From an uncultured Bacteriovoracaceae bacterium (GTDB lineage Bacteria; Desulfobacterota; Desulfomonilia; UBA1062), in the NCBI GenBank assembly GCA_964600235.1, contig CAZRIV010000008.1:7683-71682 (forward strand): a stretch of 64,000 nucleotides of DNA. Direction: 5' to 3'. Shown here piece by piece: positions 22,192 to 59,007 of the stretch (positions are counted from its first letter, which is position 1; the number at the start of each line of letters is the position of its first letter). Made by a program: the position numbers and the translations under genes. Below the pieces are notes generated by a model that had not been told where the DNA came from, searched no databases, and saw only the letters and a list, made by a program, of their open reading frames with translations.

Positions 22192-22424
22192 GAATCCTCC
22201 TGCCATGTTTTTGCACACGATAGAATAAATCTCAGCGGTTGAATAATAACATGTCTCTATAGATACAGCTCAATTATTCAAAATAGTTATAAAGAGATAA
22301 TCAGGTCACTCCATTCGAAGTCCCTCGTATGGACGCTGCCTATGGCAAGGCTCATGCGGGGCACACCCCGGTCAGGCTACAGGCTCTTCTTCGAGGTCAA
22401 ATCTGTGGTGAGCATCCGGCCTTG

Positions 22425-24307: not shown

Positions 24308-24961
24308 ATGAACGACCTCAAAGAATACCTCATATCGACGGACACAATCGACTGCGGCCACGGGCAGATCCTCGCAAAGGCCCGCGAGCTCACCCTGGGC
24401 TGCGCCTCACAACGGGAAAAGGCGCTCAGGCTCTTTGCCTTTGTCCGCGACGAGATCCCCTACAACCTCTACATGATCTCGGTCTTCAGGGAAGACTTCA
24501 GGGCCTCGCGCGTCCTGGCGTGGGGCAAGGGCTACTGCGTCCAGAAGGCGGTACTGTTCACGGCCCTGGCCAGGGCCGCAGGCATCCCGGCGCGCCTGAC
24601 GTTTGCCAGGATCCGCAACCACAAGGCCCCGGCAAAGATCGTGGCATTCACCGGGACCAACATCTTCCCCCGCCACGGCTACACCCAGCTCTTCCTTGAT
24701 GGTGCATGGGTGAGCGTGGCGCCTACCTTTGACCGAGCCCTGTGCGAGAAGATCGGCGTGCCTGTCGTGGACTGGGACGGCCGCACCGACGCCACGCTGC
24801 CCGCGGAAGACCTCCAGGGAGGGAAGTACATCGAGTACATTGAAAAGTTCGGGCACTACGCCGACCTGCCCTTTGACTGGATCGTGGCCGAGACCTCGAA
24901 GAACGTGGGGAAGGACAAGAGGCCCTGGATAACAAGGGACGACATCCCCAGGGGATTATGA
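24308..24961 (+). CDS. Transglutaminase-like cysteine-peptidase superfamily protein
   Basis: Catalytic Cys context GKGYCVQKAVLFTALARAAGIPAR plus downstream His/Asp. Confidence 0.8.
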   Translation: MNDLKEYLISTDTIDCGHGQILAKARELTLGCASQREKALRLFAFVRDEIPYNLYMISVFREDFRASRVLAWGKGYCVQKAVLFTALARAAGIPARLTFARIRNHKAPAKIVAFTGTNIFPRHGYTQLFLDGAWVSVAPTFDRALCEKIGVPVVDWDGRTDATLPAEDLQGGKYIEYIEKFGHYADLPFDWIVAETSKNVGKDKRPWITRDDIPRGL

Positions 24962-27894: not shown

Positions 27895-28848
27895 TCACGC
27901 GCTGAAGGTCAGCCTGGTCCCGGACATGTTCAGGATGAACTGCCCCGGCATCTCGCGCTCCATGTGCATGATGGCCTTGCGGCCCGTGCAGTGCGTGGGC
28001 ACCACGTAGAGCGGATTCATGCCCTTGAGCTCGCCTACGGTCCGCTCGATGATGGGCTCGAAGAAGGGCCCGCTCAGGTGGAACCCGCCCATGACCGTGC
28101 ACACCCTGTCCACGCCGGTTTCCTTCATGGCATGGCGGACCGTGTTCACCACGCCCGCGTGGGCGCACCCGGTGAGGACCACGAGGCCCTTGCCCTTCAC
28201 GTTCACCGCGATGCCGGTGTCGTCCTCGATGGCGTCCCACTGTTCCTTGCCTGCCTCCTCGCGATGGGCGATGGGAAAGCCCTTCTCGAAGTCGGTAATT
28301 CTGGGTATCTCGCCGAGAAACAGTGCCTGGCCGTCCAGAAGGGGGTAGGGATCGGTGGTCTCCTTGAGGGTGTAGCCCTCCTTGAGTACGGTGTCTCTGG
28401 TGAACTCGGGGAAGTAGACCTTGAGCTCCTCGCCGAACTTCAGGTACCGTGGCTTCATGAAGACGCCGGGGTGACAGACGAACTCGAGTCCTAACCTGTT
28501 CTCCCCCATGAGAGAACTGAACATATGAATCCCCCCGGTGTGGTCCGAATGCCCATGAGACAACACCACGGCCTTGACGGCACTCATGTCAGCACCCAGC
28601 ATGACTGCGTTCCGGGCAGCCCCGTCCTCGGAGAACCCGAAGTCGAAGAGCAGGGACGATGCCTTGCCCTCGGCATGGACCGTAACAAAGGCCGAGAACC
28701 CGTGCTCGGCCAGGATGGAGTTCTTGATCTGCATGTCCTTCAAGGGTGTTGCCCTCTGTACCACGGCCGAGTTGTCCAGGGCCGTGATATCGATGTAGTT
28801 GTCCTGCAGGGTCAGGATCTCCACCTTGTCCACCTCGCGAATCTTCAT
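27895..28848 (-). CDS. MBL-fold metallo-hydrolase
   Basis: HxHxDH motif LSHGHSDHTGG and downstream His/Asp ligands. RBS AAGGAGG 5 nt before ATG 28848 (MKIREV...). Confidence 0.8.
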   Translation of the reverse strand: MKIREVDKVEILTLQDNYIDITALDNSAVVQRATPLKDMQIKNSILAEHGFSAFVTVHAEGKASSLLFDFGFSEDGAARNAVMLGADMSAVKAVVLSHGHSDHTGGIHMFSSLMGENRLGLEFVCHPGVFMKPRYLKFGEELKVYFPEFTRDTVLKEGYTLKETTDPYPLLDGQALFLGEIPRITDFEKGFPIAHREEAGKEQWDAIEDDTGIAVNVKGKGLVVLTGCAHAGVVNTVRHAMKETGVDRVCTVMGGFHLSGPFFEPIIERTVGELKGMNPLYVVPTHCTGRKAIMHMEREMPGQFILNMSGTRLTFSA

Positions 28849-28934
28849 GGATACCTCCTTCACGTTCATCCGGGTGCGGCCTGGCATGGCCGCACCCGAT
28901 TCTCGTCAGCGAATCGATCCAAACCGCCGGGGCA

Positions 28935-30635
28935 TCACTTCTCCTTGGCGTAGGGCCAGGCCACGATGCCGCCCTCCATGACCTTGACGTTGGTCCAGCC
29001 GTTGGCCTCGAGCACCAGGGCCGCTTCGTAACCTCTGAGCGAGATCTTGCAGTAGCAGATGATCTCCCTGTCCTTGTCCTGGGGAAGCTCACCAAGCCGC
29101 TTCCTCAAGGCCCCGAGCGGGATCAGGGTCTCTCCGATGCCCAGGCGCATCTGTTCGTATTCGTCAGGGCCCCGGGCATCGAGGAAGAAGGGCCGGTCCT
29201 TCTCGTCCAGTTTCTTTCTCACCTCCATGGGCGAGATACCCTTGAGCCTGCCCTTGAGCTTGTTCTGCATGAGGTGGGCCGTGGCGATGAAGTGGTCGAT
29301 GGCAAGAGAGAAGGGGGGCGCGTAGGGGAGGTCGGCGTTCACGATGTCCTCCACGTGCATGCGCGCCTGGATGGCCATGGCCCACTGGGCGATCTGCTTG
29401 GCCACGTTGCCGGGTCCGATGCACTGAGCGCCCAGGATCTTCCCGCTCGACCGCTCGGCCACGAGCTTGGTGATGATGAGCTCCCCGCCCATGAAGTTCG
29501 GCCTGTCCGTGCTCGCGTTCATTACGGTAATGATGTCCTCGATGCCGTTCTTCTTCGCAGCGGTCTCGGACAGACCCGTGGAGCCCGCAGAGAAGTCGAA
29601 GACCTTGCAGATGCCGGTCTGTATGGTGCCCGGGAAGGTGACCGTGTTGCCGACAACGGCGTTTTCCCCCGCTACCCTGCCCTGGAGGTTCGCCAGGTCG
29701 CCGTAGGGTGCCAGCACCTTTCTGCCCGTGATGCGGTTAAGGGTCTCCACGCAGTCGCCCACGGCATAGATGTCCGCATCGGACGTCTGCATGTACTCGT
29801 TCACCTCGATGCCGCCCGTGGCCCCGATGGTGAGGCCGGCCTCTTTCGCGAGCTTCACGTTCGGGCTCACGCCGATGGCCACCACGGCCAGGTCGCAGGG
29901 CAGTTCGGTGCCGTTGGACAGTTTCACCCCGGTGAGCGTGCCGTTCTCGCCCAGGAACTCGGCGATGCCGTTGCCCGTGATCACGTTGGCGTTCTTGGTC
30001 CGCACGTGGTTCTCCACGAGCTTTGCCAGATCCCAGTCAAGGAAGGTGAGCAGCTGGGGCAGCATTTCGATGACCGTGATCTCGATGCCCGCCAGTTCCA
30101 GTGCCTCGCAGGTCTCGATGCCGATGAGTCCGCCGCCGATGATGGCCGCCTTCTTGATAATGCCTTCGTCGCGTACCTTGCGCAGGAAGTCGGCGTCCTT
30201 CATGGACTGCAGGGTGGTGATGCCCTTGAGGTTCGTACCAGGGATGGGGGGCATCTTGGGCGTGGCGCCGGTTGAGATGATGAGCCTGTCGTAGGCCATG
30301 CTGCCGGTCTCGCCGGTGGCAAGGTTCCGGTAGCTCACCGTGTGCGCCTTCCTGTCGATGCCGGTCACCTCGGTGAGCGTCCGCGCATCGATGGCCTTGG
30401 CGTTCAGGTAAAACTTCGGGTCCCGCACGATGCCGGCCGGCGTGCACAACAGCATGTTGCGGTCGTCGAAGTATCCGCCCACGTAATAGGGATACCCGCA
30501 GGACGCCATGGACAGGTCCGCTTCCTTCTGGAAGATCACCACCTCCGCATGCTCGTCCATGCGCCTTGCCTTTGCCGCAGCCTTGGGCCCGGCCGCGGAC
30601 CCGCCGATTACCACTATCCTCTTTCTGTCTACCAA
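28935..30635 (-). CDS. CoA-disulfide reductase / NADH-dependent persulfide reductase with C-terminal rhodanese domain (CoADR-RHD)
   Basis: FAD motif VVIGGSAAG, single redox Cys SMASCGYPYY, an NAD(P) GxGxxG, and a C-terminal rhodanese with active Cys (ICYCKISLRG). Confidence 0.85.
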   Translation of the reverse strand: MVDRKRIVVIGGSAAGPKAAAKARRMDEHAEVVIFQKEADLSMASCGYPYYVGGYFDDRNMLLCTPAGIVRDPKFYLNAKAIDARTLTEVTGIDRKAHTVSYRNLATGETGSMAYDRLIISTGATPKMPPIPGTNLKGITTLQSMKDADFLRKVRDEGIIKKAAIIGGGLIGIETCEALELAGIEITVIEMLPQLLTFLDWDLAKLVENHVRTKNANVITGNGIAEFLGENGTLTGVKLSNGTELPCDLAVVAIGVSPNVKLAKEAGLTIGATGGIEVNEYMQTSDADIYAVGDCVETLNRITGRKVLAPYGDLANLQGRVAGENAVVGNTVTFPGTIQTGICKVFDFSAGSTGLSETAAKKNGIEDIITVMNASTDRPNFMGGELIITKLVAERSSGKILGAQCIGPGNVAKQIAQWAMAIQARMHVEDIVNADLPYAPPFSLAIDHFIATAHLMQNKLKGRLKGISPMEVRKKLDEKDRPFFLDARGPDEYEQMRLGIGETLIPLGALRKRLGELPQDKDREIICYCKISLRGYEAALVLEANGWTNVKVMEGGIVAWPYAKEK

Positions 30636-30683
30636 GCGATCCTCCTCAGGTCTTGTATGATTTTTCTTTATGGTGCGCTAAAC

Positions 30684-31022
30684 TCAGTGGTCGCAGGCGT
30701 TCTGTCCACCCTGGAGCCTGCCCGCCAGGTACTCCTCCACCAGGGCCTCCGGGGCCAGGGCAGGGGCGCCCACAAAGACGTCGATACCCTGCTGGTTGAA
30801 CAGGGCAATGGCCCGCTGGCCCATACCGCCTGCGATGACGAAGGTGGCGCCGCGCTCGGCGAGCCAGGGGGGAAGCAGGCCGGGCTGGTGAGGCGGGGCC
30901 TGGAGGTCTTCCCGGCCCTTAATCTTCTTGGTGTCCGGGTCCACGTCGATGAGCGCGAAGCGCTCGCAGTGTCCGAAGTGCATGCACAGTGTTCCGTTTG
31001 CCAGGGGTATTGCGATTTTCAT
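30684..31022 (-). CDS. NifX/NifB-like dinitrogenase FeMo-cofactor-biosynthesis-domain protein
   Basis: MKIAIPLANGTLCMHFGHCERFALIDVD... and ...FVIAGGMGQRAIALFNQQGIDV match the PF02579 fold. Confidence 0.8.
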   Translation of the reverse strand: MKIAIPLANGTLCMHFGHCERFALIDVDPDTKKIKGREDLQAPPHQPGLLPPWLAERGATFVIAGGMGQRAIALFNQQGIDVFVGAPALAPEALVEEYLAGRLQGGQNACDH

Positions 31023-31074
31023 ATATATTCTCCTTGTTCAGATAAGAGTTTTTTCTCCGTTTAAAAAAGTGTGC

Positions 31075-32361
31075 CTACTCTTCCTGCAGCTCCAGGAAGA
31101 GCTGTTCGACGATGTCCCGCATGGCGCCTGCCGTGGGGGTTTTCGCGTAATGGTGGATAAACGCGAACCCGTCGTCGCCCGCCTCTGCCACCTGGGGGTC
31201 CATGGGGATGGCCCCGAGGAAGGGCACGGCCATGTCCTCGGCGATGCCCCTTCCGCCGCCGCTTCTAAGGACCGGCGTGTACTGGCCGCAGTGCGGGCAC
31301 ACGAACCCGCTCATGTTCTCCACCACCCCGAGTACGGGCACCGAGAGCTCATGGCAGAACGAGACCGACTTGCGGACATCCACCGCGGCCACCTTCTGGG
31401 GCGTGGTGACCACCACCGCGCCGTCAACCCCGCCCAGCAGCTGGCAGATGGAGAGCGGCTCGTCTCCTGTTCCCGGAGGCAGGTCCACGATGAGGTAGTC
31501 CAGGTCTCCCCAGGCCACGTCCTTGAGGAACTGCTTGAGCGCCCCCATCTTCATGGGCCCGCGCCAGATCACGGCATCGTCCCTGTTACGCAGAAAGAAC
31601 CCCAGGGACATGACCTTGAGCCCGCCCACATCCACGGGCAGCAGCTCACCGGGCTCACCGTCCACCCTCCTGCCCTCCAGGCCCAGCATGGTGGGCACAC
31701 TCGGGCCGTGGATATCCGCGTCCAGCAGGCCCACTGTCCAGCCGTCCATCATGAGGGCAACGGCCAGGTTCACGGCCACGGTGCTCTTGCCGACCCCTCC
31801 CTTGCCCGAAAGCACCACGATCTTGTGCCTGATCCGGCAGAGCCTCTGCTCAAGCTTCTGCCGATCCGCAAAGTCGGCGTCGCTCTCGCCCTGATTGCGT
31901 CTCTTGGCCGAGCACGATGCATCCGTACAGGTTCCGCAGCTCTGGCCCGCCTTGCGCGTCTTCCGGGCTTCGCGCACCGTCCGGCCTTTGCCGTAAGCAT
32001 CGAGGGCGGCCTTCAGGGTATCCGAAGCCAGCAGGGCACAGTGTTCGACCTCGCCCGGCAGGCCTCCCAGGGCGTCGATGATCTCCTTCTGCCCGAACTG
32101 CGACACCTCTCTCACGTCCCTGCCCGAGGCAAGGGAGGTGGCCATGCTCCCGCAGGCCCGCGAAGGTCCGCAACCGGTGGTGGTGAACGACGCCCGCTCC
32201 ACAATGTCGTCCCGGACAAGGAGCCAGAACTCCATGGTGTCTCCGCAGGGACCTGTGATGCGCGCGTGGGCGTTGAACCTGGGCAGGCCCCCCTCGTTTC
32301 GGGGCTTTTCCGCGTGCTCGCGCACCACGGGGGACAGGTTCAGTTCTTCATGCATTTCCAT
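31075..32361 (-). CDS. Fe-S cluster scaffold/carrier fusion: N-terminal NifU/IscU-like domain + Mrp/NBP35 (ApbC) P-loop ATPase
   Basis: IscU-type ligands GPCGDTMEF, TGCGPSRACGS and HCALLA. Then Mrp Walker A SGKGGVGKST and the C-terminal CPHC of ApbC. Confidence 0.85.
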   Translation of the reverse strand: MEMHEELNLSPVVREHAEKPRNEGGLPRFNAHARITGPCGDTMEFWLLVRDDIVERASFTTTGCGPSRACGSMATSLASGRDVREVSQFGQKEIIDALGGLPGEVEHCALLASDTLKAALDAYGKGRTVREARKTRKAGQSCGTCTDASCSAKRRNQGESDADFADRQKLEQRLCRIRHKIVVLSGKGGVGKSTVAVNLAVALMMDGWTVGLLDADIHGPSVPTMLGLEGRRVDGEPGELLPVDVGGLKVMSLGFFLRNRDDAVIWRGPMKMGALKQFLKDVAWGDLDYLIVDLPPGTGDEPLSICQLLGGVDGAVVVTTPQKVAAVDVRKSVSFCHELSVPVLGVVENMSGFVCPHCGQYTPVLRSGGGRGIAEDMAVPFLGAIPMDPQVAEAGDDGFAFIHHYAKTPTAGAMRDIVEQLFLELQEE

Positions 32362-32362
32362 A

Positions 32363-33265
32363 TCATCCGCCCGAATGGGTTATATTCTTCCAGAGTTCCC
32401 TGATGTCTTGGGCGGCAGGACAATCCGTCTCCACCACGGTCAGCGATGCCACCTGCGCCGTTGTCACCCCGGCATCGTAGCGGATGCGGCCCGCGATCCT
32501 GACTCCGCCCCGGCTCGCCATCTCATCGATACGGCAGGTCAGATCAGGGTTGATGTCCCACTTGTTCACGCACACTGCAGAGGGTATGTCGAAGTGCCTT
32601 GCCAGGGCTAGGACACGCTCCAGGTCGTGCTCGCCCGACACGGTGGGCTCGGTGACGACAAGCACCATGCTGGCCCCGCCCATGGATGCGATGACCGGGC
32701 AGCCGATGCCGGGAGGCCCGTCCACGATGATCATGGACCGACCCTGTTCTTCGGCGATGCGGCGGGCCTCTTTACGCACCATGGAGACCAGCTTGCCCGA
32801 GTTCTCTGCCGCGATGCCCAGGCGGGCGTGGACCATGGGGCCGCACCTGGTCCGCGAGATCATCCAGTGCCCGCAGGAGCGCTCGGGAAAATCGATGGCC
32901 TTTTCCGGGCAGAACTGCACGCACACCCCGCACCCTTCGCACGAGACCGGGTCAATGCGATACGTGCGAATATCCTCTCCGTCCTGGCGCAGGCCGATGG
33001 CGCCGAACCGGCACAGGTCACTGCAGATCCCGCACCCCGTGCAGTCCGAGGCCCTGATAACGGCCTCGCGCCCGCTGATGAACTCGTGCCGTTCGATCTC
33101 CTGCGGCCTTAAAAGCAGATGCAGATCAGCGGCATCCACGTCGCAGTCCGCGACCACGGAGTTGCCGGCCAGCACGGCCAGCGAAGCAGCCAGGCTGGTC
33201 TTGCCCGTGCCACCCTTGCCGCTTATGACGACCAGTTCGCGGACGCTCTGCGTGTCTATGCCCAT
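32363..33265 (-). CDS. MinD/ParA-superfamily P-loop ATPase with inserted 2x[4Fe-4S] ferredoxin domain
   Basis: The start is taken at MGIDTQSV... Walker A SGKGGTGKTS, then CTGCGICSDLC and CEGCGVCVQFCP ferredoxin motifs. Confidence 0.8.
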   Translation of the reverse strand: MGIDTQSVRELVVISGKGGTGKTSLAASLAVLAGNSVVADCDVDAADLHLLLRPQEIERHEFISGREAVIRASDCTGCGICSDLCRFGAIGLRQDGEDIRTYRIDPVSCEGCGVCVQFCPEKAIDFPERSCGHWMISRTRCGPMVHARLGIAAENSGKLVSMVRKEARRIAEEQGRSMIIVDGPPGIGCPVIASMGGASMVLVVTEPTVSGEHDLERVLALARHFDIPSAVCVNKWDINPDLTCRIDEMASRGGVRIAGRIRYDAGVTTAQVASLTVVETDCPAAQDIRELWKNITHSGG

Positions 33266-33273
33266 AGCCTGAT

Positions 33274-33534
33274 TCACTCCCCGCACGACGGCTTCCCGCA
33301 GCGCGCATCCCTGCCGCAGCAGGTCTTCCCGGTCGTCTCCAGCGAGCACGACCCGGCGGGGATAGAGGCCCGTCCCTGTCCTGCACCCCTGAAGATGAAG
33401 CCCGTCCCTCCGCTCACAAGGCGGCGCACCTCGGCGCCGCACTGCGGACACTGCCGGAGCGGTTCATCAGTCATGGCCTGCTCGTGTTCGAAACGCGAGC
33501 CGCATGTGGTACATTCATACTCGTAGGTCGGCAT
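33274..33534 (-). CDS. FmdB-family zinc-ribbon protein
   Basis: MPTYEYECTTCGSRFE...CPQCG is the FmdB signature. Gly/Ser-rich C-terminus. Confidence 0.65.
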   Translation of the reverse strand: MPTYEYECTTCGSRFEHEQAMTDEPLRQCPQCGAEVRRLVSGGTGFIFRGAGQGRASIPAGSCSLETTGKTCCGRDARCGKPSCGE

Positions 33535-34387
33535 GGTTCTCTCTCCTTGCCCTGTTCCATAATTCGCTAATATTAATCATAAGCTGTTCAAAGAGCGCCC
33601 GGTATTCTATCAGGGCGTCGACCATGAGGTCTCCCCTCGAATAGGCCTCGGCGATACGGCGGTCGTCCGGGATCTCCATGAGGATGGGCACGCCGGACTC
33701 CCGGCAGAAGGAGTGGACCCTGTCGTCGCCCACCCCTACCCGGTTGATCACCACGCCGAAGGGGATGGCGAGCTCGCGCACCATGTCGACGGCAAGCTTC
33801 AGGTCGTTCAGGCCGAAGGGCGTGGGCTCGGTTACCAGGACGACCAGGTCTGTTCCCTTGATGGTGGCGATCACGGGGCACGAGGTGCCAGGCGGCGCGT
33901 CCAGTATGGCCATCCTCTCCCCGTCGAGGCGTTCCTTCACGGCCCGTATGACAGGCGGCGCCATGGCCACGCCTACATCGATGCGGCCCTGAACCAGGGT
34001 GATATGCCCCGATTCGATGATCTCGACCTCGCCGATACGGCGGTCCTTCTCGGTTATGGCCTTTCTCGGGCAGACAAGCGTGCAGCCACCACACCCATGA
34101 CAGAGCTCCTCGAAGACCAGGGCCTCGTCGGTGAGCGCCGCGATGGCATTGAACTCGCAGATGGCGCTGCAAGCCCCGCAGCCGTCGCAGAGCGCCGCAT
34201 CCACCTGGGGCACGGGCATGGTTACCACCTCCCGGCTCTTCAGGACGCCCGTGAGGAACAGGTGGGCGTTCGGCTCCTCCACGTCGCAGTCTAGAAGCTT
34301 CACCGGCGTGGCGGATACCTTTGCCAGGTTAACGGACACCGTGGTCTTTCCCGTTCCGCCCTTGCCCGATGCCACGGAGACGATCAT
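33515..34387 (-). CDS. MinD/ParA-superfamily P-loop ATPase with inserted 2x[4Fe-4S] ferredoxin domain (second paralog)
   Basis: SGKGGTGKTTVSVNLA, then CDGCGACSAICEF and CHGCGGCTLVCP. Confidence 0.85.
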   Translation of the reverse strand: MIVSVASGKGGTGKTTVSVNLAKVSATPVKLLDCDVEEPNAHLFLTGVLKSREVVTMPVPQVDAALCDGCGACSAICEFNAIAALTDEALVFEELCHGCGGCTLVCPRKAITEKDRRIGEVEIIESGHITLVQGRIDVGVAMAPPVIRAVKERLDGERMAILDAPPGTSCPVIATIKGTDLVVLVTEPTPFGLNDLKLAVDMVRELAIPFGVVINRVGVGDDRVHSFCRESGVPILMEIPDDRRIAEAYSRGDLMVDALIEYRALFEQLMINISELWNRARRENHADLRV

Positions 34388-34923
34388 GATTCCGCCTCCG
34401 GATCGTTACCCGGACGGTATCCACGCCTCCCCCGACTCTGGGCCGATGCCTCGTTAACCTCGTGATGCCACCCGTCTCTCGTGCCCTCGATGCGGTCGAA
34501 CCTGCCCACATAGGGCTTGATGTCGAGCAGGGGTGTGCCGTCGAGGATGTCCACTCCGTCGAGGTGCAGTGTCGCACCTTCTCGCCTCACAAGCTCCACG
34601 ATACTCAGCCCGATGGGGTTGGGCCTGCAGGGAGCCCGGGTGGAAAATACCCCGCGCTCCACGTCCTGGAGAAAGGGCTGCACGGTCAGCCGTGCCAGGC
34701 CTGAGCGGTGGAAATGATAGATCAGGATGATGTGGGAGAATCCGTCGAGGTCCTTCAGTCCTTCAGCATACTCGGGCAGCACCTCGACCCTGCCGGTGCA
34801 GCCCTGTGCGTACACGCTCTGGATCGGCGTCCGCTCAGGGTCCGTATGGGTGCTGCGGATGATGCCGATGGGCCCGTAGGACAGGCTCAAGGGATTGGAC
34901 CTCATCCCTTCTTTCATACCCAA
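34384..34923 (-). CDS. TsaA/YaeB-family SAM-dependent methyltransferase (tRNA m6t6A37 methyltransferase-like)
   Basis: Conserved TsaA core ...IGIIRSTHTD...DLDGFSHIILIYHFH...RPNPIGLSIVEL... Confidence 0.75.
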   Translation of the reverse strand: MGMKEGMRSNPLSLSYGPIGIIRSTHTDPERTPIQSVYAQGCTGRVEVLPEYAEGLKDLDGFSHIILIYHFHRSGLARLTVQPFLQDVERGVFSTRAPCRPNPIGLSIVELVRREGATLHLDGVDILDGTPLLDIKPYVGRFDRIEGTRDGWHHEVNEASAQSRGRRGYRPGNDPEAES

Positions 34924-35276
34924 TGTCCCTCCACATCCGCGTCGTGTGCAGGCTTCAGACTGCCCGCCCGGAACCTGTCAAGGGCATCGGCAACGCTTGC
35001 GGCATCGGTGGTGTAGATGGCGATCCCGGCCGCCTTGAGCACCTTGAAGGCCTTGGGGCCGCAGTGACCGGTAACCAGGTGCGTCGCGCCCGTCCTGGCC
35101 ACGTTCTGGGCCGCCTGTATGCCCGCTCCCTGTGCGGCGTTCAGGTTCTGGGTGTTGTCCGTAATCTCAAAGGTCTGTCTGTCCAGATCGTACACGAGGA
35201 TCTTCGGCGCCCGGCCGAATCGGCTGTCAAGGGGTGCTTCCAGGCTGTCGCCCGAGGTGGTGAATGCAACCTTCAT
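34914..35276 (-). CDS. NifX/NafY-like dinitrogenase FeMo-cofactor-biosynthesis-domain protein
   Basis: The start is taken at MKVAFTTSGD. PF02579-like fold with ...HLVTGHCGPKAFKVLKAAGIAIY... Confidence 0.8.
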   Translation of the reverse strand: MKVAFTTSGDSLEAPLDSRFGRAPKILVYDLDRQTFEITDNTQNLNAAQGAGIQAAQNVARTGATHLVTGHCGPKAFKVLKAAGIAIYTTDAASVADALDRFRAGSLKPAHDADVEGHWV

Positions 35277-35311
35277 ATCCTTCTCCTTCTGCCGGTGTCT
35301 TATCGCCGGCA

Positions 35312-35755
35312 TCAATCATAGGCCTTCATGATCAGAGGGTCTTCGTCCATGAGGGGACCGGCAAGGTCCTTCATGTTCGAGCGCTCCCAGAAATCGAGAG
35401 CGTCGTGGTTCTTGAGGTACTTCATGGGGATGGGGTGTGTGCCCACCACCACGTCCAGGCCGTACTGCTTCTCGATGAATTCCTTGAAATCGGCTATATA
35501 AGGACACGGGGGGTACCCCACGACAAACCCGGTTGCCAGGTGGATGACCTCGGCGCCGTTCTTCTTCATCTCGGCAGGGACATATTCCACGTTCCCTCCG
35601 GGACACCCCCCGCAGCCGGAATAACCCACCACCTCCACGTCCTCGTCCGCGGGGTATATCGCGAAGGCCCCGCACCTTTCCCTGAGCGCCCGGAAGCACT
35701 TTCCGCCACCGCACGTACGGTAGCGCTCACAGATGATGATGCCGATCTTTTTCAT
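35312..35755 (-). CDS. CGGC-domain protein
   Basis: MKKIGIIICERYRTCGGGKCFRA...GYSGCGGCPGG matches the CGGC-domain signature. Confidence 0.75.
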   Translation of the reverse strand: MKKIGIIICERYRTCGGGKCFRALRERCGAFAIYPADEDVEVVGYSGCGGCPGGNVEYVPAEMKKNGAEVIHLATGFVVGYPPCPYIADFKEFIEKQYGLDVVVGTHPIPMKYLKNHDALDFWERSNMKDLAGPLMDEDPLIMKAYD

Positions 35756-35756
35756 A

Positions 35757-36095
35757 TTATTCTTTTCCTGTTTTTTTGATTTCTCCACCGGGCTTCCCTC
35801 CCTGTTCATCAGGGCCCTCGATGGCCTTCGGCGTCACGACCACCGCCTTTACCCGCTGCGGTTCCTTCCTTTTCTCCAGCACCCGCCGCGCAAAGGCCTT
35901 GATCCTGCTGTCGGGCTGTCTGAGGTCGTGCACGGCGATCCCGGCGATCCATGCCAGCACCGGCCCGAGGACGGGGGCCCTCCTGAACAGGCGCATGGGT
36001 ATCATGGATGCGCCGGGCAGGTTTTTCCCCAGGGTCTTCATCAGGATATTCTTCCCCCACCTGAACCTCCATGGTCCTCCCGAGTGTGTATTCAT
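35757..36095 (-). CDS. Hypothetical small membrane protein (operon member)
   Basis: An ATG overlaps the upstream stop (ATGA) and there is one hydrophobic helix (VLGPVLAWIAGIAV). No domain is recognised. Confidence 0.35.
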   Translation of the reverse strand: MNTHSGGPWRFRWGKNILMKTLGKNLPGASMIPMRLFRRAPVLGPVLAWIAGIAVHDLRQPDSRIKAFARRVLEKRKEPQRVKAVVVTPKAIEGPDEQGGKPGGEIKKTGKE

Positions 36096-36667
36096 GGCAT
36101 CTGGTCCTCTTTTGTCCGTATGCCCCTCGGATCGGGTCCCCTGACCAGCGCACTCCCGCATACGGGGCACTTCTTCCGCGAGCAGGGGACGCCCCGCTCA
36201 TGCGGTTCGCTGTGAGGGCAGTTCGGACAGATACAGGTGAACCCTGATTCTCCCCCGGTGGCATCCCCCATTACGCACCTTCCCTTTCCTAAGCGCATGC
36301 CCATGCCGCTGCCCCCACGGCCTCTAACCTGCCGGCAGCATCCGGGCATGGCGAAAATATCGTCATGGATACTACCGTCGAGACTCGCCTGGATCACCGT
36401 GCGCAGTTCCCCGGCGACAAACGGGATCACCGTGATGCCGCAGGATGCGACAAGGTCCTGCAGCGGACGAGATATGGCGCCGCAGACCAGTGTGTTAACC
36501 CCGAGGTTTTCGAGGCACCGGGCCTTCGCCGCCGGGTCGTCGCCGGGCATCGCCTCGTCGGACTCGCGCACGATCCGGCCTTGGTCGCTCTCCACGATGA
36601 AGACCTGCCGGGCCACGTCGAAGACCGGGGCGATTCTGTTGTTCCAGGAGGAAAATGCTGTTTTCAT
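36092..36667 (-). CDS. NifX/NifB-like FeMoco-biosynthesis-domain protein with Cys-rich C-terminal extension
   Basis: N-terminal PF02579 fold (MKTAFSSWNNRIAPVFDVARQVFIV...LVCGAISRP...). The C-terminus carries CICPNCPHS...CPVCG zinc-ribbon-like motifs. Confidence 0.75.
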   Translation of the reverse strand: MKTAFSSWNNRIAPVFDVARQVFIVESDQGRIVRESDEAMPGDDPAAKARCLENLGVNTLVCGAISRPLQDLVASCGITVIPFVAGELRTVIQASLDGSIHDDIFAMPGCCRQVRGRGGSGMGMRLGKGRCVMGDATGGESGFTCICPNCPHSEPHERGVPCSRKKCPVCGSALVRGPDPRGIRTKEDQMP

Positions 36668-36701
36668 AAGCGTTCAGGCAATCCTTCTTTCTGTCCTTAT
36701 T

Positions 36702-36720
36702 CAGCATAGTCCATGCCAGG
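36702..36720 (-). promoter_or_regulatory. Candidate sigma-54 (-24/-12) promoter of the NifX-like/Fe-S operon
   Basis: The minus strand reads CTGGCATGGACTATGCTG. The GG-N10-GC spacing matches TGGCAC-N5-TTGCW with mismatches. It is ~35-50 nt upstream of ATG 36667 and directly downstream of the sigma-54 activator gene. Confidence 0.3.
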
Positions 36721-36851
36721 TCCTATCCAGTAGAATATAAAGCCTTCAACACCTTGATATATTTGGATTATCCTGCGTATTTCAGGGGAAGAGCCATATC
36801 TTATCAGTCGCGATATTGCGACTCTGTAGGTTTATTATAGTCCCATTTATG

Positions 36852-38246
36852 CTACTGTTTCACATGGCGGGCAGCACGGCCGTCTTTTCCTTCCGTATGG
36901 ATCCCGTGCTTCTTGATCTTCCTGAACAGGGTGCTCTTGTGGATGCCGAGCTCACGCGCCGCTGCAAGGCGGTTGTTCGCGTTGCGCTCCAGGGCCTTCC
37001 GGATGGCCTGCGCCTCCAGCATGTCTCCTGCCGATTTCATGCCCGGATGAGCCCTGCCCTCGGAGTAGCGCACGGTCAGCTCCTCGGGAAGATGTGAAAT
37101 ACCGATAGTGCCTTTTTCGCAAAGGATGAATGCCCGCTCGACAACGTTCTCCAGCTCCCTTATGTTGCCCGGCCAGTCGTGGGCCATGAGCAGCGACAGG
37201 GCCTCCGTGGTGATGCCCTGGACGGATTTCTTCTGCAGCGCGTTGAAGTGGGCGATGAACTGCTCGGAGAGCAGCGGTATGTCTTCCTTGCGCCTGCGCA
37301 GCGGCGGCAGCTCCAGGCGGACCACATTCACCCGGTAGTAGAGGTCTTCACGGAAGAGGCCGAGCTTCACCTGGCGGGCCAGGTCCTTGTTGGTGGCCAC
37401 GATGACCCGGGCATCGGCGGTCTCGGAAAAAGTGGCGCCCAGGGGCTCGTACTTCCTGTCCTGGAGGACCCGCAGCAGCCTCACCTGCAGGGCCGGGCTC
37501 ACCTCGCCGATCTCGTCGAGAAACAGAGTCCCGCCCCTGGCCAGGGCGAACCGGCCCGGTTTGTCCTTTGCGGCGCCTGTGAAGGCCCCTGCCTTGTAGC
37601 CGAAGAGTTCGGACTCCAGAAGCGTGTCGGGCAGCGCCCCGCAGTTGACCGCGATGAAGGGCCCTTCACGCCTGGGGCTCAGGGCATGGATGGTCCTGGC
37701 CACCACCTCCTTGCCCGTGCCGGTCTCGCCGAGGATGAGCACGGTGCTGGGGCTTGCCGCCACGGCCGGGATGACCTCGAACACCTTCTGCATGATGGGG
37801 CTGCGGCTCGCAAGCTCGCCCACGTGGGAGCGTCCGGCCAGCTCCTGGCGGAGTTCCTCGAGCTCGGACAGGTCGCGGAAGGTCTCCGCGCCTCCGATGA
37901 TGCGGCCTTGAGCGTCCTTCAGCATGGCCGTGGAGACGCTGATGGGGATGCGCTGCCCCCTGGCATCGATGATGTAGCAAGACTTCCCGATCACCTGCTT
38001 TCCGTTCTTCAGGGTGCGCTTCAGGGCGCAGTCGACCTCGCACATGCTGGAGCGGAAGACCTCCGAGCAGAGCCTCCCGATGGCTTCATCCCTCGGTATG
38101 CCCGTGATCTCTTCGGCCGCGCGGTTGAAGGAGGTGACGACCCAGTCCCTGTCCACCGTGAACACCCCGTCGGAGATGCTCTCCAGGATTTCACCGGTGA
38201 GCGTGGATAGCTGCGGTGTGCGTTTCCTTACGGCCTTGTCACCCAT
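36852..38246 (-). CDS. Sigma-54-dependent transcriptional activator (PAS sensor + AAA+ + Fis-type HTH)
   Basis: PAS domain, then AAA+ with [14 protein letters not shown] and ESELFGH motifs, and a C-terminal HTH. Confidence 0.9.
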
Positions 38247-38458: not shown

Positions 38459-39478
38459 ATGCCTGAACTGAAGTTTGAACCGGAGCTCTGCGCAACGTGC
38501 ACCACCATCGACTGTGTCATGAAGTGCCAGTACATGGACCTGGACCTTGCCAGGGCAAGGGATGAACATGACCGGCTCGTGCGCAAAGAGCGTTCATCGA
38601 TCCTCACCGACTGTGTCACCTGTTATGCCTGCGAGGAATACTGCCCTTGCGGCAACCACCCCTTCTACCTCATCGTGGAGAGGCAGGAACAGCTGGACAT
38701 CCATCCCGTCCCTGTGCCCATCGAGAAATCCCAGGTGGTCATGATGGCCCCCAGGGGCAGGATCGTCCCCGAAGAGGTGCATGCCCCGGTGATCGACATG
38801 TGCTTTTTCGACATCATGAAGGCAGGCATCAGGGGAAGGCTCTTCGAAGGCGCCACCACCATAGGGGGAAGCGATGTCTTCTGCAACCTCATGTTCCTCC
38901 ACTTCGCCCGCAACTCCACCATCAAGGAGCGGCTCCCGCTGATCATGGAGAACATCATGCGTTTCCACCTGGAGCCCTCGGGCGTCTCCGAGCTCATCTG
39001 CTTCCACGACGAGTGCTACGGCACCTACACCTCCTGGGCGAAGGCCTTCGGTCTCGAGGTGCCCTTCAAACCGGTCCACTTCTTCGACTACCTCTACCAC
39101 CGTCTCGTCGAGATGAAGTCCGAGATAAAACCGCTGAACGTGAAGGTGGCCTACCAGCGCCCGTGCTCCAACCGGCTCTGCCCCGAGACCGACCACTACG
39201 TGGACGACATCTTCGGCCTTATCAGTGCCGACAGACCGAAGAGGACCTACGAGTACGGCAATGCCCTGTGCTGCGGGGGCGTGCCCGAGGCCGCCCAGCG
39301 CTTCGACCTGGTGGACGATATCAGGGGCAGGAACGTGGAGGACATGAGGGCCGCAGGCGTCCAGTACTGCGTGTTCAACTGCCCGTTCTGCTTCTGGACC
39401 CTGGCAGAGCCCGTGGCCAAGGCGGGTATTTTCCCCATCATGATGTCGGACCTGTGTCTCATGGCGCTTGGGGAGTGA
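38459..39478 (+). CDS. (Fe-S)-binding protein, ferredoxin + CCG (Cys-rich) domains (GlcF/LutA/HdrD-like)
   Basis: CATCTTIDCVMKC and CVTCYACEEYCPCG, then a CCG-domain CCGG motif. RBS GGGGAGG. Confidence 0.85.
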   Translation: MPELKFEPELCATCTTIDCVMKCQYMDLDLARARDEHDRLVRKERSSILTDCVTCYACEEYCPCGNHPFYLIVERQEQLDIHPVPVPIEKSQVVMMAPRGRIVPEEVHAPVIDMCFFDIMKAGIRGRLFEGATTIGGSDVFCNLMFLHFARNSTIKERLPLIMENIMRFHLEPSGVSELICFHDECYGTYTSWAKAFGLEVPFKPVHFFDYLYHRLVEMKSEIKPLNVKVAYQRPCSNRLCPETDHYVDDIFGLISADRPKRTYEYGNALCCGGVPEAAQRFDLVDDIRGRNVEDMRAAGVQYCVFNCPFCFWTLAEPVAKAGIFPIMMSDLCLMALGE

Positions 39479-39487
39479 GGAGAGATC

Positions 39488-40876
39488 ATGGAACGTTCGG
39501 CGATAATCAAACGGCTGAAGGCCATCGTGGGCGATGCCTGTGTCTCGGATGCCCCCGAGGAACTCTTCATCTACTCGCGGGACCAGGGGGTCCAGGAACC
39601 TCACCTGCCCGACTGGGTAGTCATGCCGGCGAGCACCGGCGAGGTGGTCTCCATCCTGAAACTCGCCTCCCGGGAGAAGATCCCGGTGGTGCCCATGGGC
39701 GGAGGGCTCGTGCTCTCGGGTCTGTCCGTGCCGCTGCAAGGAGGCATCGTGCTGGACATGAAGCGCATGAACCGCATCCTTGAGGTAAATGAGCACAGCC
39801 ACTACGCGGTGGTGGAGGCAGGGACCTCCCAAGGTATGCTCGATGCCTATCTCAGGAAGCATCACCCCGGCCTCAAGCACTCGCTGCCCGACGCGCCTCC
39901 TGGGGCCACCGTTGCGGGAAACATCGCCATCCACGGCTCCGGACACCTCTCCCAGAGCGAGGGCGGGTTCCACTCCGAGATGGTCACCGGGCTCGAGGTG
40001 GTGCTCGCGAGCGGCGAGGCCGTGAAGATCGGCTCGTGCTCCACCGTGCCTGCCTGGTTCTCCCGGGCACCCCTGCCCGACCTGGCGGGCCTGTTCCTCG
40101 GCTGGAACGGCACCACCGGTGTCATTACCAAGGTGGGCATCAAGCTTTTCCCCCGTCCGAAGCACCATGATGTCCTGGTCTACATGACCGAGGACATCGA
40201 CCTGGCCCCGTTGGTGCTTTCCCGGGTGATCGGCACCTCCATGGCCGAGGACATCAACTACGCCCTGGCGCCCAAGCCGGACTACCTGAACGGTTTCCAG
40301 ATGACCGTGATCAACTTCACGGCCGCCTCCGAGGACGAGCTCACCTTCAAACGCAAGAAGCTCCGCTCGGTGATGAAGGACCTCTACGACACGAAGAGGT
40401 CCGGGTTCATGCCCATACCCCCGAACATGAAGGCGGGCTTCCTCGAGGCGCCCCAGAAGGCCCTGAGCAAGTTTGCCGACGTGCGCAAGGGCGGCGGGTT
40501 CGAGTATGTGGGCGCCATCATGCCCATCGAGAAGATCCCGGATGCCTGCAGGGCGGGCATGGCCATCACGGCGCGGCACAACATCACCTACTCATTGGGT
40601 TCCCGCATCATCGGGCGCGGGCACGCGGCCATGTTCTTCTTCGCCTACCCCTTCAACCGGGTGGACAAAGATGAGGTGGAGCGGGTGAAACAGGCCCTGG
40701 ATGACACCAACGAGACGGCCCTGGCGCTGGGCGGCATCCCCTGGAAAACCGAGGTGCAGGGCCAGCAGCTCATCCTCAAACAGATGGACCCAGCCACACG
40801 TGCCCTCATCAAGCGGATCAAGGGGGTCCTCGATCCGGACGGGATCATGAATCCCGGCAACTGGGAGGTGGCCTAG
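39488..40876 (+). CDS. FAD-binding oxidoreductase (GlcD/D-lactate dehydrogenase family FAD-linked oxidase)
   Basis: FAD_binding_4 domain (VVPMGGGLVLSG...) plus the C-terminal FAD-oxidase_C domain. 462 aa. Confidence 0.9.
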   Translation: MERSAIIKRLKAIVGDACVSDAPEELFIYSRDQGVQEPHLPDWVVMPASTGEVVSILKLASREKIPVVPMGGGLVLSGLSVPLQGGIVLDMKRMNRILEVNEHSHYAVVEAGTSQGMLDAYLRKHHPGLKHSLPDAPPGATVAGNIAIHGSGHLSQSEGGFHSEMVTGLEVVLASGEAVKIGSCSTVPAWFSRAPLPDLAGLFLGWNGTTGVITKVGIKLFPRPKHHDVLVYMTEDIDLAPLVLSRVIGTSMAEDINYALAPKPDYLNGFQMTVINFTAASEDELTFKRKKLRSVMKDLYDTKRSGFMPIPPNMKAGFLEAPQKALSKFADVRKGGGFEYVGAIMPIEKIPDACRAGMAITARHNITYSLGSRIIGRGHAAMFFFAYPFNRVDKDEVERVKQALDDTNETALALGGIPWKTEVQGQQLILKQMDPATRALIKRIKGVLDPDGIMNPGNWEVA

Positions 40877-42037
40877 ATGGACAGTGCATACCGCGACATC
40901 CTTCACAGGTGCTTCCGCTGCGGCTGGTGCAAGTTCCCGCTCAACTATACCGACTTCAACTGTCCCGCCTATCTGAAGTTCCGCTTCGAGTCGTTCTCTT
41001 CGGGCGGCAGGATGTGGCTCATCAGGGCATGGCAGGACGGAGAGATCGCCACCAGCGAACGTCTCGGGCAGATCCTCTTCTCGTGCGTCACCTGCAGGAA
41101 CTGCGTGGAGGCATGCGCCATACCGGGCATAAAGGACAAGCTGGTGGACGTGTTCATCGAGGCTCGCTCGGACATGGTGGAACAGGGCAGGATACCGCCA
41201 AAGGTGAGGGACTACTTCAAGGCCATCAGCGTAAACGGCAACCCCTACAAGATGCCGGCTGGTGACAGGGGGAAATGGTCTGACGGCCTCGGACTGGACA
41301 GGTATGAAGACCAGGAATATCTCTTCTATGTGGGGGACGAGGGCGCCTTTGACGAGATGGGCCAGAGGATGGCCCGGTCCGTGGCCACGCTCATGAAGCG
41401 GGCCGGGTTGTCTTTCGGCGTCATCTTCGAAGACGAACTCACCGACGGCAACGACGTGCGCGCCCTGGGTGAGAAGGGCCTGGCCGCATACCTGGCCCAG
41501 CAGAATATCGCGCTCATGATCGCTCGCGGGGTGAAAAAGGTCATCACGCTGTCCCCGCATGCGTTCAATGCCATGAAGAACGAATACCCCGCCCACGGCT
41601 CGACCATACACGTGGAGCACTACACCCAGACGTTGCGGCCCCTTATGGGGAGCCTCGGCGCCGGGGCGTCCACCGGCAGGGTGGTGACCTACCACGACCC
41701 CTGCTACCTGGGTAGGTGGAACAACGAGTACCTCGCCCCACGCCAGATCCTGAAATCCGTCAAGGGGCTCAAGCTCGTGGAAATGGACAGGGCAATGAAA
41801 AACGCCCTGTGCTGCGGGGGCGGAGGGGGCAACTTCTTCACGGACATGCTCGGCACAGGGCCTGACCTGGCGGCTCGGGCACGGGTGAAAGAGGCGCTCG
41901 CAACGGGTGCGGACACCATCGCCGTGGCCTGCCCACAATGCCTGAGGATGCTCGGAGATGCCGTGAAGGACGAAGGCGTCGAAGACATGATCCAGGTGAG
42001 GGAGATCTCCGAAATCGTGAACGAAGCCGCGCCCTGA
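40877..42037 (+). CDS. (Fe-S)-binding protein with two CCG domains (GlcF-like)
   Basis: CFRCGWCKF...CPAY and CVTCRNCVEAC ferredoxin motifs, then CCGGGGGNF CCG domains. Confidence 0.85.
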   Translation: MDSAYRDILHRCFRCGWCKFPLNYTDFNCPAYLKFRFESFSSGGRMWLIRAWQDGEIATSERLGQILFSCVTCRNCVEACAIPGIKDKLVDVFIEARSDMVEQGRIPPKVRDYFKAISVNGNPYKMPAGDRGKWSDGLGLDRYEDQEYLFYVGDEGAFDEMGQRMARSVATLMKRAGLSFGVIFEDELTDGNDVRALGEKGLAAYLAQQNIALMIARGVKKVITLSPHAFNAMKNEYPAHGSTIHVEHYTQTLRPLMGSLGAGASTGRVVTYHDPCYLGRWNNEYLAPRQILKSVKGLKLVEMDRAMKNALCCGGGGGNFFTDMLGTGPDLAARARVKEALATGADTIAVACPQCLRMLGDAVKDEGVEDMIQVREISEIVNEAAP

Positions 42038-42159
42038 AAATGCTGCACACAGCATTGTGATTTCTTAAGAAGAAGCCATTTTCTGGCCATGCTCAAAAAT
42101 ATCGGGATTGCTAATGAGAAGCTTTCCGGTTATGGAGAGATAAAATTTTGGAGAATCCT

Positions 42160-42525
42160 ATGAAGATTGCACTGCCTTCGAACGGAACCATGGTTGATGG
42201 TCATTTCGGCCACTGTGAATATTTTACGGTTATAACGGTAGACGATAAGAGGAAGATCGTGAACCAGGAACTGGTGCAGCCTCCTGCCGGTTGCGGATGC
42301 AAGTCCAACATAGTGGGCACGCTGGCGGACATGGGGGTAAAGGTGATGCTCGCCGGGAACATGGGCGCCGGGGCAGTCAATGTCCTGAACTCTCACGGGA
42401 TCGAGGTTGTACGCGGGTGCAGCGGCAACGTGCGGAAAGTGGTTGAGGACTGGCTCAGTGGCACCTTGAATGACTCGGGAACGACATGCGCCTCCCACGA
42501 CGGATGCGGCGATCATAGCCATTAA
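42160..42525 (+). CDS. NifX/NifB-like FeMoco-biosynthesis-domain protein
   Basis: MKIALPSNGTMVDGHFGHCEYFTVI...MLAGNMGAGAV... matches PF02579. Confidence 0.8.
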   Translation: MKIALPSNGTMVDGHFGHCEYFTVITVDDKRKIVNQELVQPPAGCGCKSNIVGTLADMGVKVMLAGNMGAGAVNVLNSHGIEVVRGCSGNVRKVVEDWLSGTLNDSGTTCASHDGCGDHSH

Positions 42526-48143: not shown

Positions 48144-48414
48144 GAAACACCTCCATGGAGTGGTATGGGCTCCACCTATACCACCTTGAGAGACCATGGA
48201 CAAGATCATAGTGCTACGTTTGTTAATTTAGTAGCACCAATGCTCCTTCTTTTCTTAGCCCGCAGCAAGCTGCGAGGTATCAAAAACAAAGGCAGGGAAC
48301 GAAGCACGCTTCGAGGAATTAACCCGGTAGAGATTTAAAAGGGTATTATCCGCATGATTTAGAAAAAACCCCGTTTGGAGCTACTGAAGATACGGTATCC
48401 TAATGTTATCCCTT

Positions 48415-58027: not shown

Positions 58028-58040
58028 ACAAGGAGGAAGT

Positions 58041-58937: not shown

Positions 58938-59007
58938 TGCACCAGCCGGGACGGGACAGGCACAGCCATGTCCCGTCCCGTGTACCATGGAAAGGATTGG
59001 GGAACGA

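Follow-up and report, generated by a model that had tools for sequence, protein, structure and literature searches.

A probable orange protein (orp) cluster, laid out as one long operon behind an OrpR-like activator, in an uncultured Bacteriovoracaceae bacterium

What is the system encoded by a tight row of genes for NifX-fold proteins, ferredoxin-like ATPases and an Fe-S scaffold-carrier protein that stands behind a sigma-54 activator? The question is raised by a 64-kb stretch of DNA from an uncultured Bacteriovoracaceae bacterium (contig CAZRIV010000008.1; hereafter, the window), on whose minus strand a sigma-54 activator gene and then twelve further genes occupy positions 38246 to 27895. 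An initial annotation took this row for an uncharacterised system for the assembly of metal clusters, with an unknown target. We consider it very probable that the region is an orp (ORange Protein) cluster accompanied by OrpR, the activator dedicated to it, and laid out as one long operon. The orp system has already been described in Desulfovibrio and studied in Desulfovibrio vulgaris Hildenborough (PMC8359166, PMC3897727, PMC6345978), and the copy in the window is a longer, single-operon version of that cluster. The genes are the following, in the order of the operon:

38246-36852, minus strand: orpR-like activator gene, 464 amino acids (PAS_4/PAS_9, Sigma54_activat, AAA_lid_14 and HTH_8 in Pfam).
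36667-36092, minus strand: g1, PF02579 domain with a Cys-rich tail (Pfam).
36095-35757, minus strand: gS, 112 amino acids, with a counterpart kept in the related locus L085.
35755-35312, minus strand: CGGC-domain protein (PF08821, 97.8 bits), 147 amino acids.
35276-34914, minus strand: NifX-fold protein of the ORP/Orp8 type (PF02579), 120 amino acids.
34917-34384, minus strand: TrmO/TsaA-like protein with a single domain (PF01980, 138.9 bits; TIGR00104, 125 bits), 177 amino acids.
34387-33515, minus strand: MinD-type ATPase with an inserted 2x[4Fe-4S] ferredoxin, copy A (CbiA, ParA, Fer4).
33534-33274, minus strand: FmdB-family zinc ribbon with a Cys-rich C-terminal tail (TIGR02605, 70.3 bits, cut-off 31.3), 86 amino acids.
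33265-32363, minus strand: MinD-type ATPase with an inserted 2x[4Fe-4S] ferredoxin, copy B (CbiA, Fer4).
32361-31075, minus strand: IscU/NifU_N-Mrp fusion of the Orp9 type (PF01592 and PF10609).
31022-30684, minus strand: separate Di-Nase (NifX-type) gene (PF02579).
30635-28935, minus strand: flavoprotein disulfide reductase with a C-terminal rhodanese domain (Pyr_redox_2 and rhodanese in Pfam).
28887-27895, minus strand: MBL-fold protein of the TM1679 type (Lactamase_B; PDB 3H3E and 2P4Z).

The twelve genes behind the activator (36667-27895) are tightly packed: their starts and stops overlap or stand at most 52 nucleotides (nt) apart, the gaps in operon order being -4, 1, 35, -4, -4, -20, 8, 1, 52, 48 and 47 nt. 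The initial annotation had correctly placed a row of minus-strand genes downstream of a PAS/sigma-54 activator, and all the families that it named, the FmdB zinc ribbon included, are confirmed by Pfam and NCBIfam. Every gene that it listed is present, and gS (36095-35757) was missing from its list. It had also pointed to a fourth NifX-like gene near 42160 and to a nearby nifS (17574), which were found, respectively, at 42148-42525 on the plus strand and, as a class-V aminotransferase (NifS-like) gene, at 18719-17574 on the minus strand. Its general reading stands as regards sigma-54 control through an enhancer-binding activator, the metal-cluster proteins and the module of Fe-S scaffold and carrier. 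The part that has to be given up is the uncharacterised system without a known target, since the locus matches orp/OrpR and the published clients of the carrier protein MrpORP, namely Orp3 and Orp4, are encoded within the operon.

Three kinds of protein carry this identification. The first is the orange protein itself. The top PDB match of the product of 35276-34914 is the ORP of Desulfovibrio gigas (2WFB; 69.9 bits, E 1.8e-18), to which it is 40% identical, while MTH1175 scores 58.2 bits, and among the four PF02579 paralogues of the window this protein is the best match to ORP. Most of the ORP-type proteins encoded beside OrpR-type activators form a subgroup that is 36-49% identical to D. gigas ORP. 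As in other orp clusters, the gene precedes those of the two ATPases, with the TrmO-like gene standing in between in the window. The second kind is this pair of MinD-type P-loop ATPases, paralogues that both contain an insertion of two [4Fe-4S] ferredoxin motifs; they fit the description of Orp3 and Orp4, the ferredoxin-like ATPases to which MrpORP hands its clusters (PMC6345978).

The third is MrpORP, which is divided here between two genes. The best family of the product of 32361-31075 is the NCBIfam MrpORP model NF041136 (376 bits over positions 2-251, as compared with 241 for ApbC); this score lies below the whole-protein cut-off of 450, the Di-Nase part being a separate gene. The product of that gene (30684-31022) gives 130 bits to positions 265-365 of the same model, and the two genes joined in silico reach 512 bits over positions 2-365 of 365. 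Scaffold Cys/Asp residues and the CxxC motif of Mrp (CPHC) are visible in the first product, and the Di-Nase gene carries CxHFGHCE, PPHxPG and C-terminal CDH, the motifs described for MrpORP's Di-Nase domain (PMC6345978). IscU-Mrp and IscU-Mrp-Di-Nase fusions are common in metagenomes, where all of the 120 best matches had PF01592 and PF10609 and 35 of them PF02579 as well, and some are named MrpORP by NCBI; a 2019 InterPro survey held a single IscU-Mrp fusion architecture of this kind. The form in the window, with IscU and Mrp fused and Di-Nase apart, is intermediate between the separate genes of one related locus (L049) and the triple fusion of another (L044), and the fact of fusion argues that scaffold, carrier and Di-Nase domain act in sequence.

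The activator and the region that it would control point the same way. The protein consists of an N-terminal PAS sensor, an AAA+ domain that contains GAFTGA and an HTH of the Fis type, and its PAS domain shows Cys60, Cys69 and Cys73, in a C-x8-C-x3-C signature, together with Glu62; all three cysteines are invariant across 30 aligned homologues. In OrpR, C52, C61 and C65 with D/E54 are the residues that hold a redox-sensing [4Fe-4S] cluster (PMC8359166), and both the spacing of the cysteines and the acidic residue are the same in the two activators, the comparison being with the published description of OrpR and not with the DVU2106 sequence. Relatives of the activator were found by a PAS-domain profile search in at least 585 species of GTDB, and the neighbourhoods of the best 80 related loci, none of them from Desulfovibrio, were used for gene counts; 50 of these loci extend for 6 kb or more downstream of the activator. 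In the window, these elements lie between the activator gene and g1:

36856-36839, minus strand: distal enhancer palindrome, one mismatch to AGTMGC-N6-GCKACT, overlapping the stop codon of orpR.
36823-36806, minus strand: proximal enhancer palindrome AGTCGCAATATCGCGACT, no mismatches to AGTMGC-N6-GCKACT.
36759-36747, minus strand: IHF-consensus site TATCAAGGTGTTG, between the enhancer sites and the promoter.
36718-36703, minus strand: sigma-54 -24/-12 promoter TGGCATGGACTATGCT, about 35 nt upstream of the start codon of g1.

A candidate -24/-12 promoter had been proposed in the initial annotation, and it turns out to be the sole match to TGGCAYN6TGCW on either strand of the window, where 0.76 would be expected by chance. 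The window itself and 27 of 47 related loci, together 28 of 48 aligned regions, have an equivalent promoter in the same place. The 18-nt enhancer palindrome is about 145-fold denser in the intergenic regions between activator and g1 than in the remainder of the related loci; in the window, the proximal copy, whose centre lies about 122 nt upstream of the predicted transcript start, is the sole match to the motif with zero mismatches. Likewise, the IHF consensus WATCARNNNNTTR has a single match across both strands of the window, and this match has the same position as the functional IHF sites of the orp promoters of D. vulgaris Hildenborough, for which the layout of enhancer, IHF site and promoter has been demonstrated (PMC3897727; also PMC8359166).

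Two further matches deserve mention. A sigma-70-like promoter match (GTGAAA-18-TATAAT, 10 of 12 positions) at 36863-36834 on the minus strand overlaps the distal palindrome; such matches are no commoner in the window than in shuffled sequence, and its meaning is uncertain. Another enhancer-like site, at 48230-48247 with one mismatch, lies 20 nt upstream of a DUF4198 gene (48209-47388, of a family associated with Ni/Co uptake) with no sigma-54 promoter nearby, and is probably due to chance.

Several observations weigh against the identification. The loop that contacts sigma-54 reads GAFTGA in the activator of the window and GAFTDA in DVU2106, and the palindrome of the window, AGTCGC-N6-GCGACT, is unlike the published site of D. 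vulgaris Hildenborough, GGGCGYRTTTTGCGCCC. The identity to the ORP of Desulfovibrio (Megalodesulfovibrio) gigas is just 40%, and the binding of a Mo-Cu cluster is predicted by analogy. D. gigas ORP is the sole Desulfovibrio orp protein that was compared directly by sequence; the equivalence of Orp3, Orp4, Orp5 and OrpR comes from published descriptions and from the NCBIfam model of MrpORP. Transcription, redox control and the formation of a complex are also predictions for this bacterium, made by analogy with D. vulgaris.

If the D. vulgaris experiments are a guide, the PAS domain of the activator would hold a [4Fe-4S] cluster on its three conserved cysteines. When the redox potential is low, the activator with its [4Fe-4S] cluster, sitting on the two palindromes and assisted by bending through IHF, would make the sigma-54 RNA polymerase open the promoter, and a rise in redox potential, or oxidation, would switch the activator off. 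Among the products, the IscU-Mrp protein would build Fe-S clusters and pass them to the two ferredoxin-like ATPases, and these ATPases, together with an orange protein that carries a Mo(or W)-Cu-sulfide cluster, would make up the ORP complex. The flavoprotein with a rhodanese domain may supply or buffer persulfide sulfur, and a transporter encoded next to the operon, wtpABC, may feed the metal.

How typical is this arrangement? The relatives of the activator are spread over many phyla and include members of Thermodesulfobacteriota, Acidobacteriota, Omnitrophota, Verrucomicrobiota, Bacillota, Thermotogaceae and Vibrionaceae (Vibrio/Photobacterium), whereas in the literature OrpR is described as apparently confined to delta-proteobacteria. 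The initial annotation had suggested examining the conservation of the neighbourhood, and the same gene order does recur behind the activator in many of the 80 loci and in many phyla. Since these related loci share the gene order of the window, the single-row operon is the usual form of the system and the divergent layout of Desulfovibrio the exception. Counted on the same strand and downstream of the activator in the 50 long loci, ORP-type genes occur in 32, ATPase copies A and B in 29 and 28, respectively, Di-Nase genes in 22, MBL-like genes in 14, Mrp and IscU (NifU_N) genes in 13 each, TrmO-like genes in 7, CGGC genes in 5, CoADR-like genes in 2 and WtpA in 1. Across all 80 loci, copy A was found in 36 and copy B in 35.

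The most constant neighbour of the activator is g1, whose type (NifX domain with a Cys-rich tail) is present downstream in 43 of the 50 loci. In 12 of these 50 (L001, L003, L034, L035, L050, L056, L059, L066-L069 and L073), the activator and g1, the latter usually with a DUF5320 gene, are found without ORP or MinD-ferredoxin genes, and DUF364/DUF4213, radical SAM, ARMT1-like and cytochrome c genes follow. Thus, it is g1 and not the orange protein that is the most constant partner of the regulator. In the window, g1 is composed of a NifX-type (PF02579) domain, a Gly/Arg-rich linker and a zinc-ribbon-like tail with six cysteines, and it is probably the counterpart of the small Fe-S protein of orp operons (Dde_3197/Orp5 type); Dde_3197 has been reported to be homologous to Di-Nase proteins (PMC10533852). 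Genes that recur elsewhere and are absent from the operon of the window are DUF5320, whose place is taken by gS, and those for a radical SAM enzyme, an ARMT1-like/DUF89 protein and a peroxiredoxin.

The nearest counterpart of the operon is on a contig of a metagenome-assembled genome (L085, GCA_029547045.1), which has the identical twelve genes in the same order, with protein identities of 62-94%. The best-conserved of them is the CoADR-rhodanese gene (11736-13436 in L085), at 94% and at 99% in its rhodanese part, as compared with 62-89% for the others. The counterpart of gS stands in the same position and is 62% identical, and this conservation indicates that gS is a real gene. It overlaps g1 at an ATGA start/stop, encodes one hydrophobic segment and has no match in Pfam or NCBIfam; its family is a rare one, for which 1.84 billion proteins gave only about 10 representative clusters. 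It sits where most related operons have DUF5320, and we considered whether it could be a diverged DUF5320 and found no family match and no obvious similarity.

As for the remaining accessory genes, a CGGC gene occurs in 8 of the 80 loci and a TrmO/TsaA-like gene, whose best PDB match is AF_0241, in 11; Zn_ribbon_8 genes are also found in other orp clusters. An MBL-like gene, 26-37% identical, lies behind the cluster in 17 of the 80 loci. The best PDB matches of the CoADR-rhodanese protein are 6PFZ, 3ICR, 3NTA and 8A56.

Downstream of the operon there is a block of Mo/W-related genes (27824-22425) made up of the following features:

27824-25002, minus strand: wtpABC tungstate/molybdate ABC transporter, directly downstream of the operon and on the same strand.
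24308-24961, plus strand: transglutaminase-like gene, convergent.
24001-23216, minus strand: modA.
23180-22425, minus strand: gene of DUF364 ("heavy-metal chelation").

The wtpABC products have WtpA (453 bits, cut-off 355), WtpB (285, cut-off 340) and WtpC (372, cut-off 440) as their best NCBIfam families, the last two below the cut-off. A gap of 70 nt without a terminator-like hairpin separates the MBL gene from wtpA, and it is possible that wtpABC is co-transcribed with the operon by read-through; a terminator scan, whose matches were no more numerous than in shuffled sequence and never intergenic, was uninformative on this point. Be that as it may, wtpABC is outside the conserved operon: it is absent from the operon's end in L085 and follows the orp genes, as an independent case of this adjacency, in one of the 80 loci (L049). 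In L085, a PstS-type transporter and nifS come directly behind the operon, and the whole block 27824-22425 can therefore be seen as an insertion relative to L085. A binding protein encoded at 21358-22218 was tried as the tungstate protein TupA and rejected, as it passes the cut-off of the PstS family. DUF364/DUF4213 genes also occur inside OrpR-type operons of other genomes (L059).

On the other side, divergent from orpR, a plus-strand unit (38459-42525) encodes a CCG-domain protein, an FAD-linked oxidase, an Fe-S/CCG protein and the Di-Nase-type NifX protein; the first three resemble the trio of glycolate or lactate oxidase. This unit is also an insertion relative to L085, where a Fer4_11/cytochrome b pair (44419-42667 in the window) abuts orpR. 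Minus-strand open reading frames (ORFs) at 38594-40579 and 40592-42055 match no family, lie opposite the real genes and were rejected as spurious. Further away, a row of multihaem cytochrome c genes lies on the plus strand (57008-63417) and includes a fusion to a cytochrome b domain; this row suggests electron transfer in the periplasm or outside the cell. Scans of the window with Rfam and for tRNAs gave no matches, and hence no molybdenum cofactor (Moco) riboswitch.

If the locus is an orp cluster, what does such a cluster do in the cell? The unusual Mo-Cu-sulfide cluster of ORP has been characterised biochemically. Within the orp identity, it is possible that the system serves the storage, traffic or detoxification of thiomolybdate or thiotungstate under sulfidic conditions of low potential, and not cell division. 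ORP binds [S2MoS2CuS2MoS2]3- according to the literature, OrpR is active at low redox potential with sulfide (PMC8359166), and in G20 the genes Dde_3197-3199 show a strong response to copper-surface conditions (PMC10533852). The position of wtpABC behind the operon in the window and in L049 would agree with this role, as would the "heavy-metal chelation" genes (DUF364/DUF4213) of related operons with activator and g1, one of which, DUF364, stands beside modA in the window. This support is circumstantial, and the linkage to Mo/W genes is rare, with one case in 80 loci, and lost in L085, the closest relative; moreover, the cluster has no genes for Moco biosynthesis, nor was a Moco riboswitch found. 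We thus hold this role to be a tentative proposal that is rather less likely to be right than wrong. An improbable extension of it would be a redox-gated pathway, spread over many anaerobic phyla, that places a heterometal-sulfide (Mo/W-S-Cu or -Fe) cluster on ORP by means of an IscU-Mrp-Di-Nase assembly line, a CoADR-rhodanese sulfur gate and, sometimes, the uptake of W/Mo. If this were true, we would be dealing with an unrecognised route of cofactor biosynthesis or thiometallate handling rather than with an accessory to cell division.

Cell division is the function favoured by the hypothesis in the literature, in which the MinD-like ATPases and their partners take part in it or in the positioning of the septum. 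Disturbed division has been reported in Desulfovibrio, and in D. vulgaris cell morphology is reported to be altered when orp expression is lost (PMC8359166, PMC3897727). MrpORP is found at the pole of the cell, and an amphipathic helix like that of MinD is present in Orp3/Orp4 (PMC6345978). In the window and the related loci examined, however, no division genes lie in or beside the operon, and the accessory genes that recur (radical SAM, ARMT1-like, peroxiredoxin, CGGC and DUF364) have to do with redox, metals or sulfur. To judge from these neighbourhoods, a role in division is unlikely.

It is also conceivable that the operon matures Fe-S or complex metal clusters and mobilises sulfur for a client enzyme encoded elsewhere, for instance a tungsten or Ni-Fe-S enzyme, which is what the initial annotation had expected from the W/Mo and Ni/Co transporters nearby. 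The operon does hold an IscU-Mrp scaffold and carrier, carriers of the NifX fold and the rhodanese-flavoprotein; wtpABC adjoins it, modA and DUF364 are close, and a NifS-like gene lies at 18719-17574. In addition, MrpORP also loads aconitase in vitro (PMC6345978). Nevertheless, the ORFs scanned in the window yielded no W, Mo or Ni enzyme, and the published targets of MrpORP are Orp3 and Orp4 of the operon itself (PMC6345978). The transporters are poor witnesses for such a client, given that L085 has the same operon without wtpABC, modA or DUF364 before pstS/nifS and that wtpABC lies behind the cluster in a single one of the 80 loci. An outside client is, in our estimation, distinctly unlikely. 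Mo or W is still relevant to the system, given that, according to the literature, a Mo-Cu-sulfide cluster is bound by the orange protein itself.

Finally, a cluster for maturing FeMo-co, the iron-molybdenum cofactor, for a nitrogenase whose nif structural genes lie outside the window is scarcely credible: the four PF02579 proteins of the window do share their fold with the FeMo-co carriers NifX, NafY and NifB-C, and a sigma-54 activator and a NifU_N domain are at hand, but no NifB radical-SAM domain, NifEN or NifHDK was found in the window or in the 21-kb locus of L085, the scores fall well short of the cut-offs (20.2 bits against 112 for the nifX equivalog and 345 against 529 for nifA), the published orp clusters with the shared gene set are described apart from nitrogen fixation, and the non-nif context noted in the initial annotation holds good, the ORFs scanned across the window having shown neither nitrogenase nor molybdopterin-enzyme domains.

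The orp/OrpR reading is thus the one that we retain, and its value lies in comparative leads for experiments on the function of ORP; the kind of system is unchanged. An OrpR-type activator with a single-row operon is widespread, being present in at least 585 GTDB species, in many phyla, in contrast to the seeming restriction to delta-proteobacteria in the literature. A recurrent set of genes surrounds the core, namely those for IscU, Mrp, Di-Nase, DUF5320, FmdB, radical SAM, ARMT1-like, TrmO-like, CGGC, MBL and DUF364 proteins. In the lineage of the window, the operon includes a highly conserved gene resembling those of CoA-persulfide reductases and adjoins a tungstate transporter.

How, then, does the operon compare with known systems? 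Its orange protein belongs, like D. gigas ORP (2WFB), to the single-domain NifX/MTH1175 fold family and matches it in length, at 120 amino acids. With MrpORP (Orp9/DVU2109, Dde_3202), its carrier shares the Mrp/NBP35 P-loop domain with a deviant Walker A, the CxxC motif, the location in an orp cluster and the Di-Nase domain with CxHFGHCE, PPHxPG and CDH, but, unlike in Orp9/DVU2109, Di-Nase is a separate downstream gene and an IscU/NifU_N scaffold with a Cys-rich linker is fused N-terminally. Core ORP operons without OrpR (such as L081 and L084) keep the same order of ORP, two MinD-ferredoxin ATPases, Di-Nase-type NifX and Zn_ribbon_8, whereas they have no sigma-54 activator, with a DUF134-type regulator or other genes upstream instead, and no g1, Mrp or IscU genes; their ORP proteins are nearer to D. 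gigas ORP (about 70%). The flavoprotein matches CoADR/CoAPR enzymes over its full length with 280-459 bits (Archaeoglobus fulgidus NoxA-3, 6PFZ; Bacillus anthracis CoADR-RHD, 3ICR; Shewanella Npsr, 3NTA; CoAPR, 8A56) and shows, like them, a redox-active Cys in its N-terminal region and the active-site Cys of rhodanese. Unlike them, it is encoded inside an orp operon; such genes occur in 5 of the 80 loci, one of them with more than 40% identity.

The closest comparison is with orp1/orp2 of D. vulgaris Hildenborough (DVU2103-DVU2109). Both loci have a sigma-54 promoter and, next to it, the gene of a PAS-AAA+-HTH activator whose PAS domain contains three conserved cysteines; in both, the enhancer sites are palindromic and an IHF site separates enhancer from promoter. 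The gene products in common are an ORP-type protein of the NifX fold, a pair of MinD-ferredoxin ATPases, a small protein rich in cysteine, and MrpORP. In D. vulgaris Hildenborough, two divergent operons of three genes each flank the regulator, whereas in the window a single unidirectional operon of twelve genes lies downstream of it, with MrpORP split over two genes and given an N-terminal IscU domain, and with CGGC, TrmO-like, FmdB, gS, CoADR-rhodanese and MBL genes as extras. The operon of the window is thus notably different in architecture from that of the model organism while being the same known orp/OrpR system.

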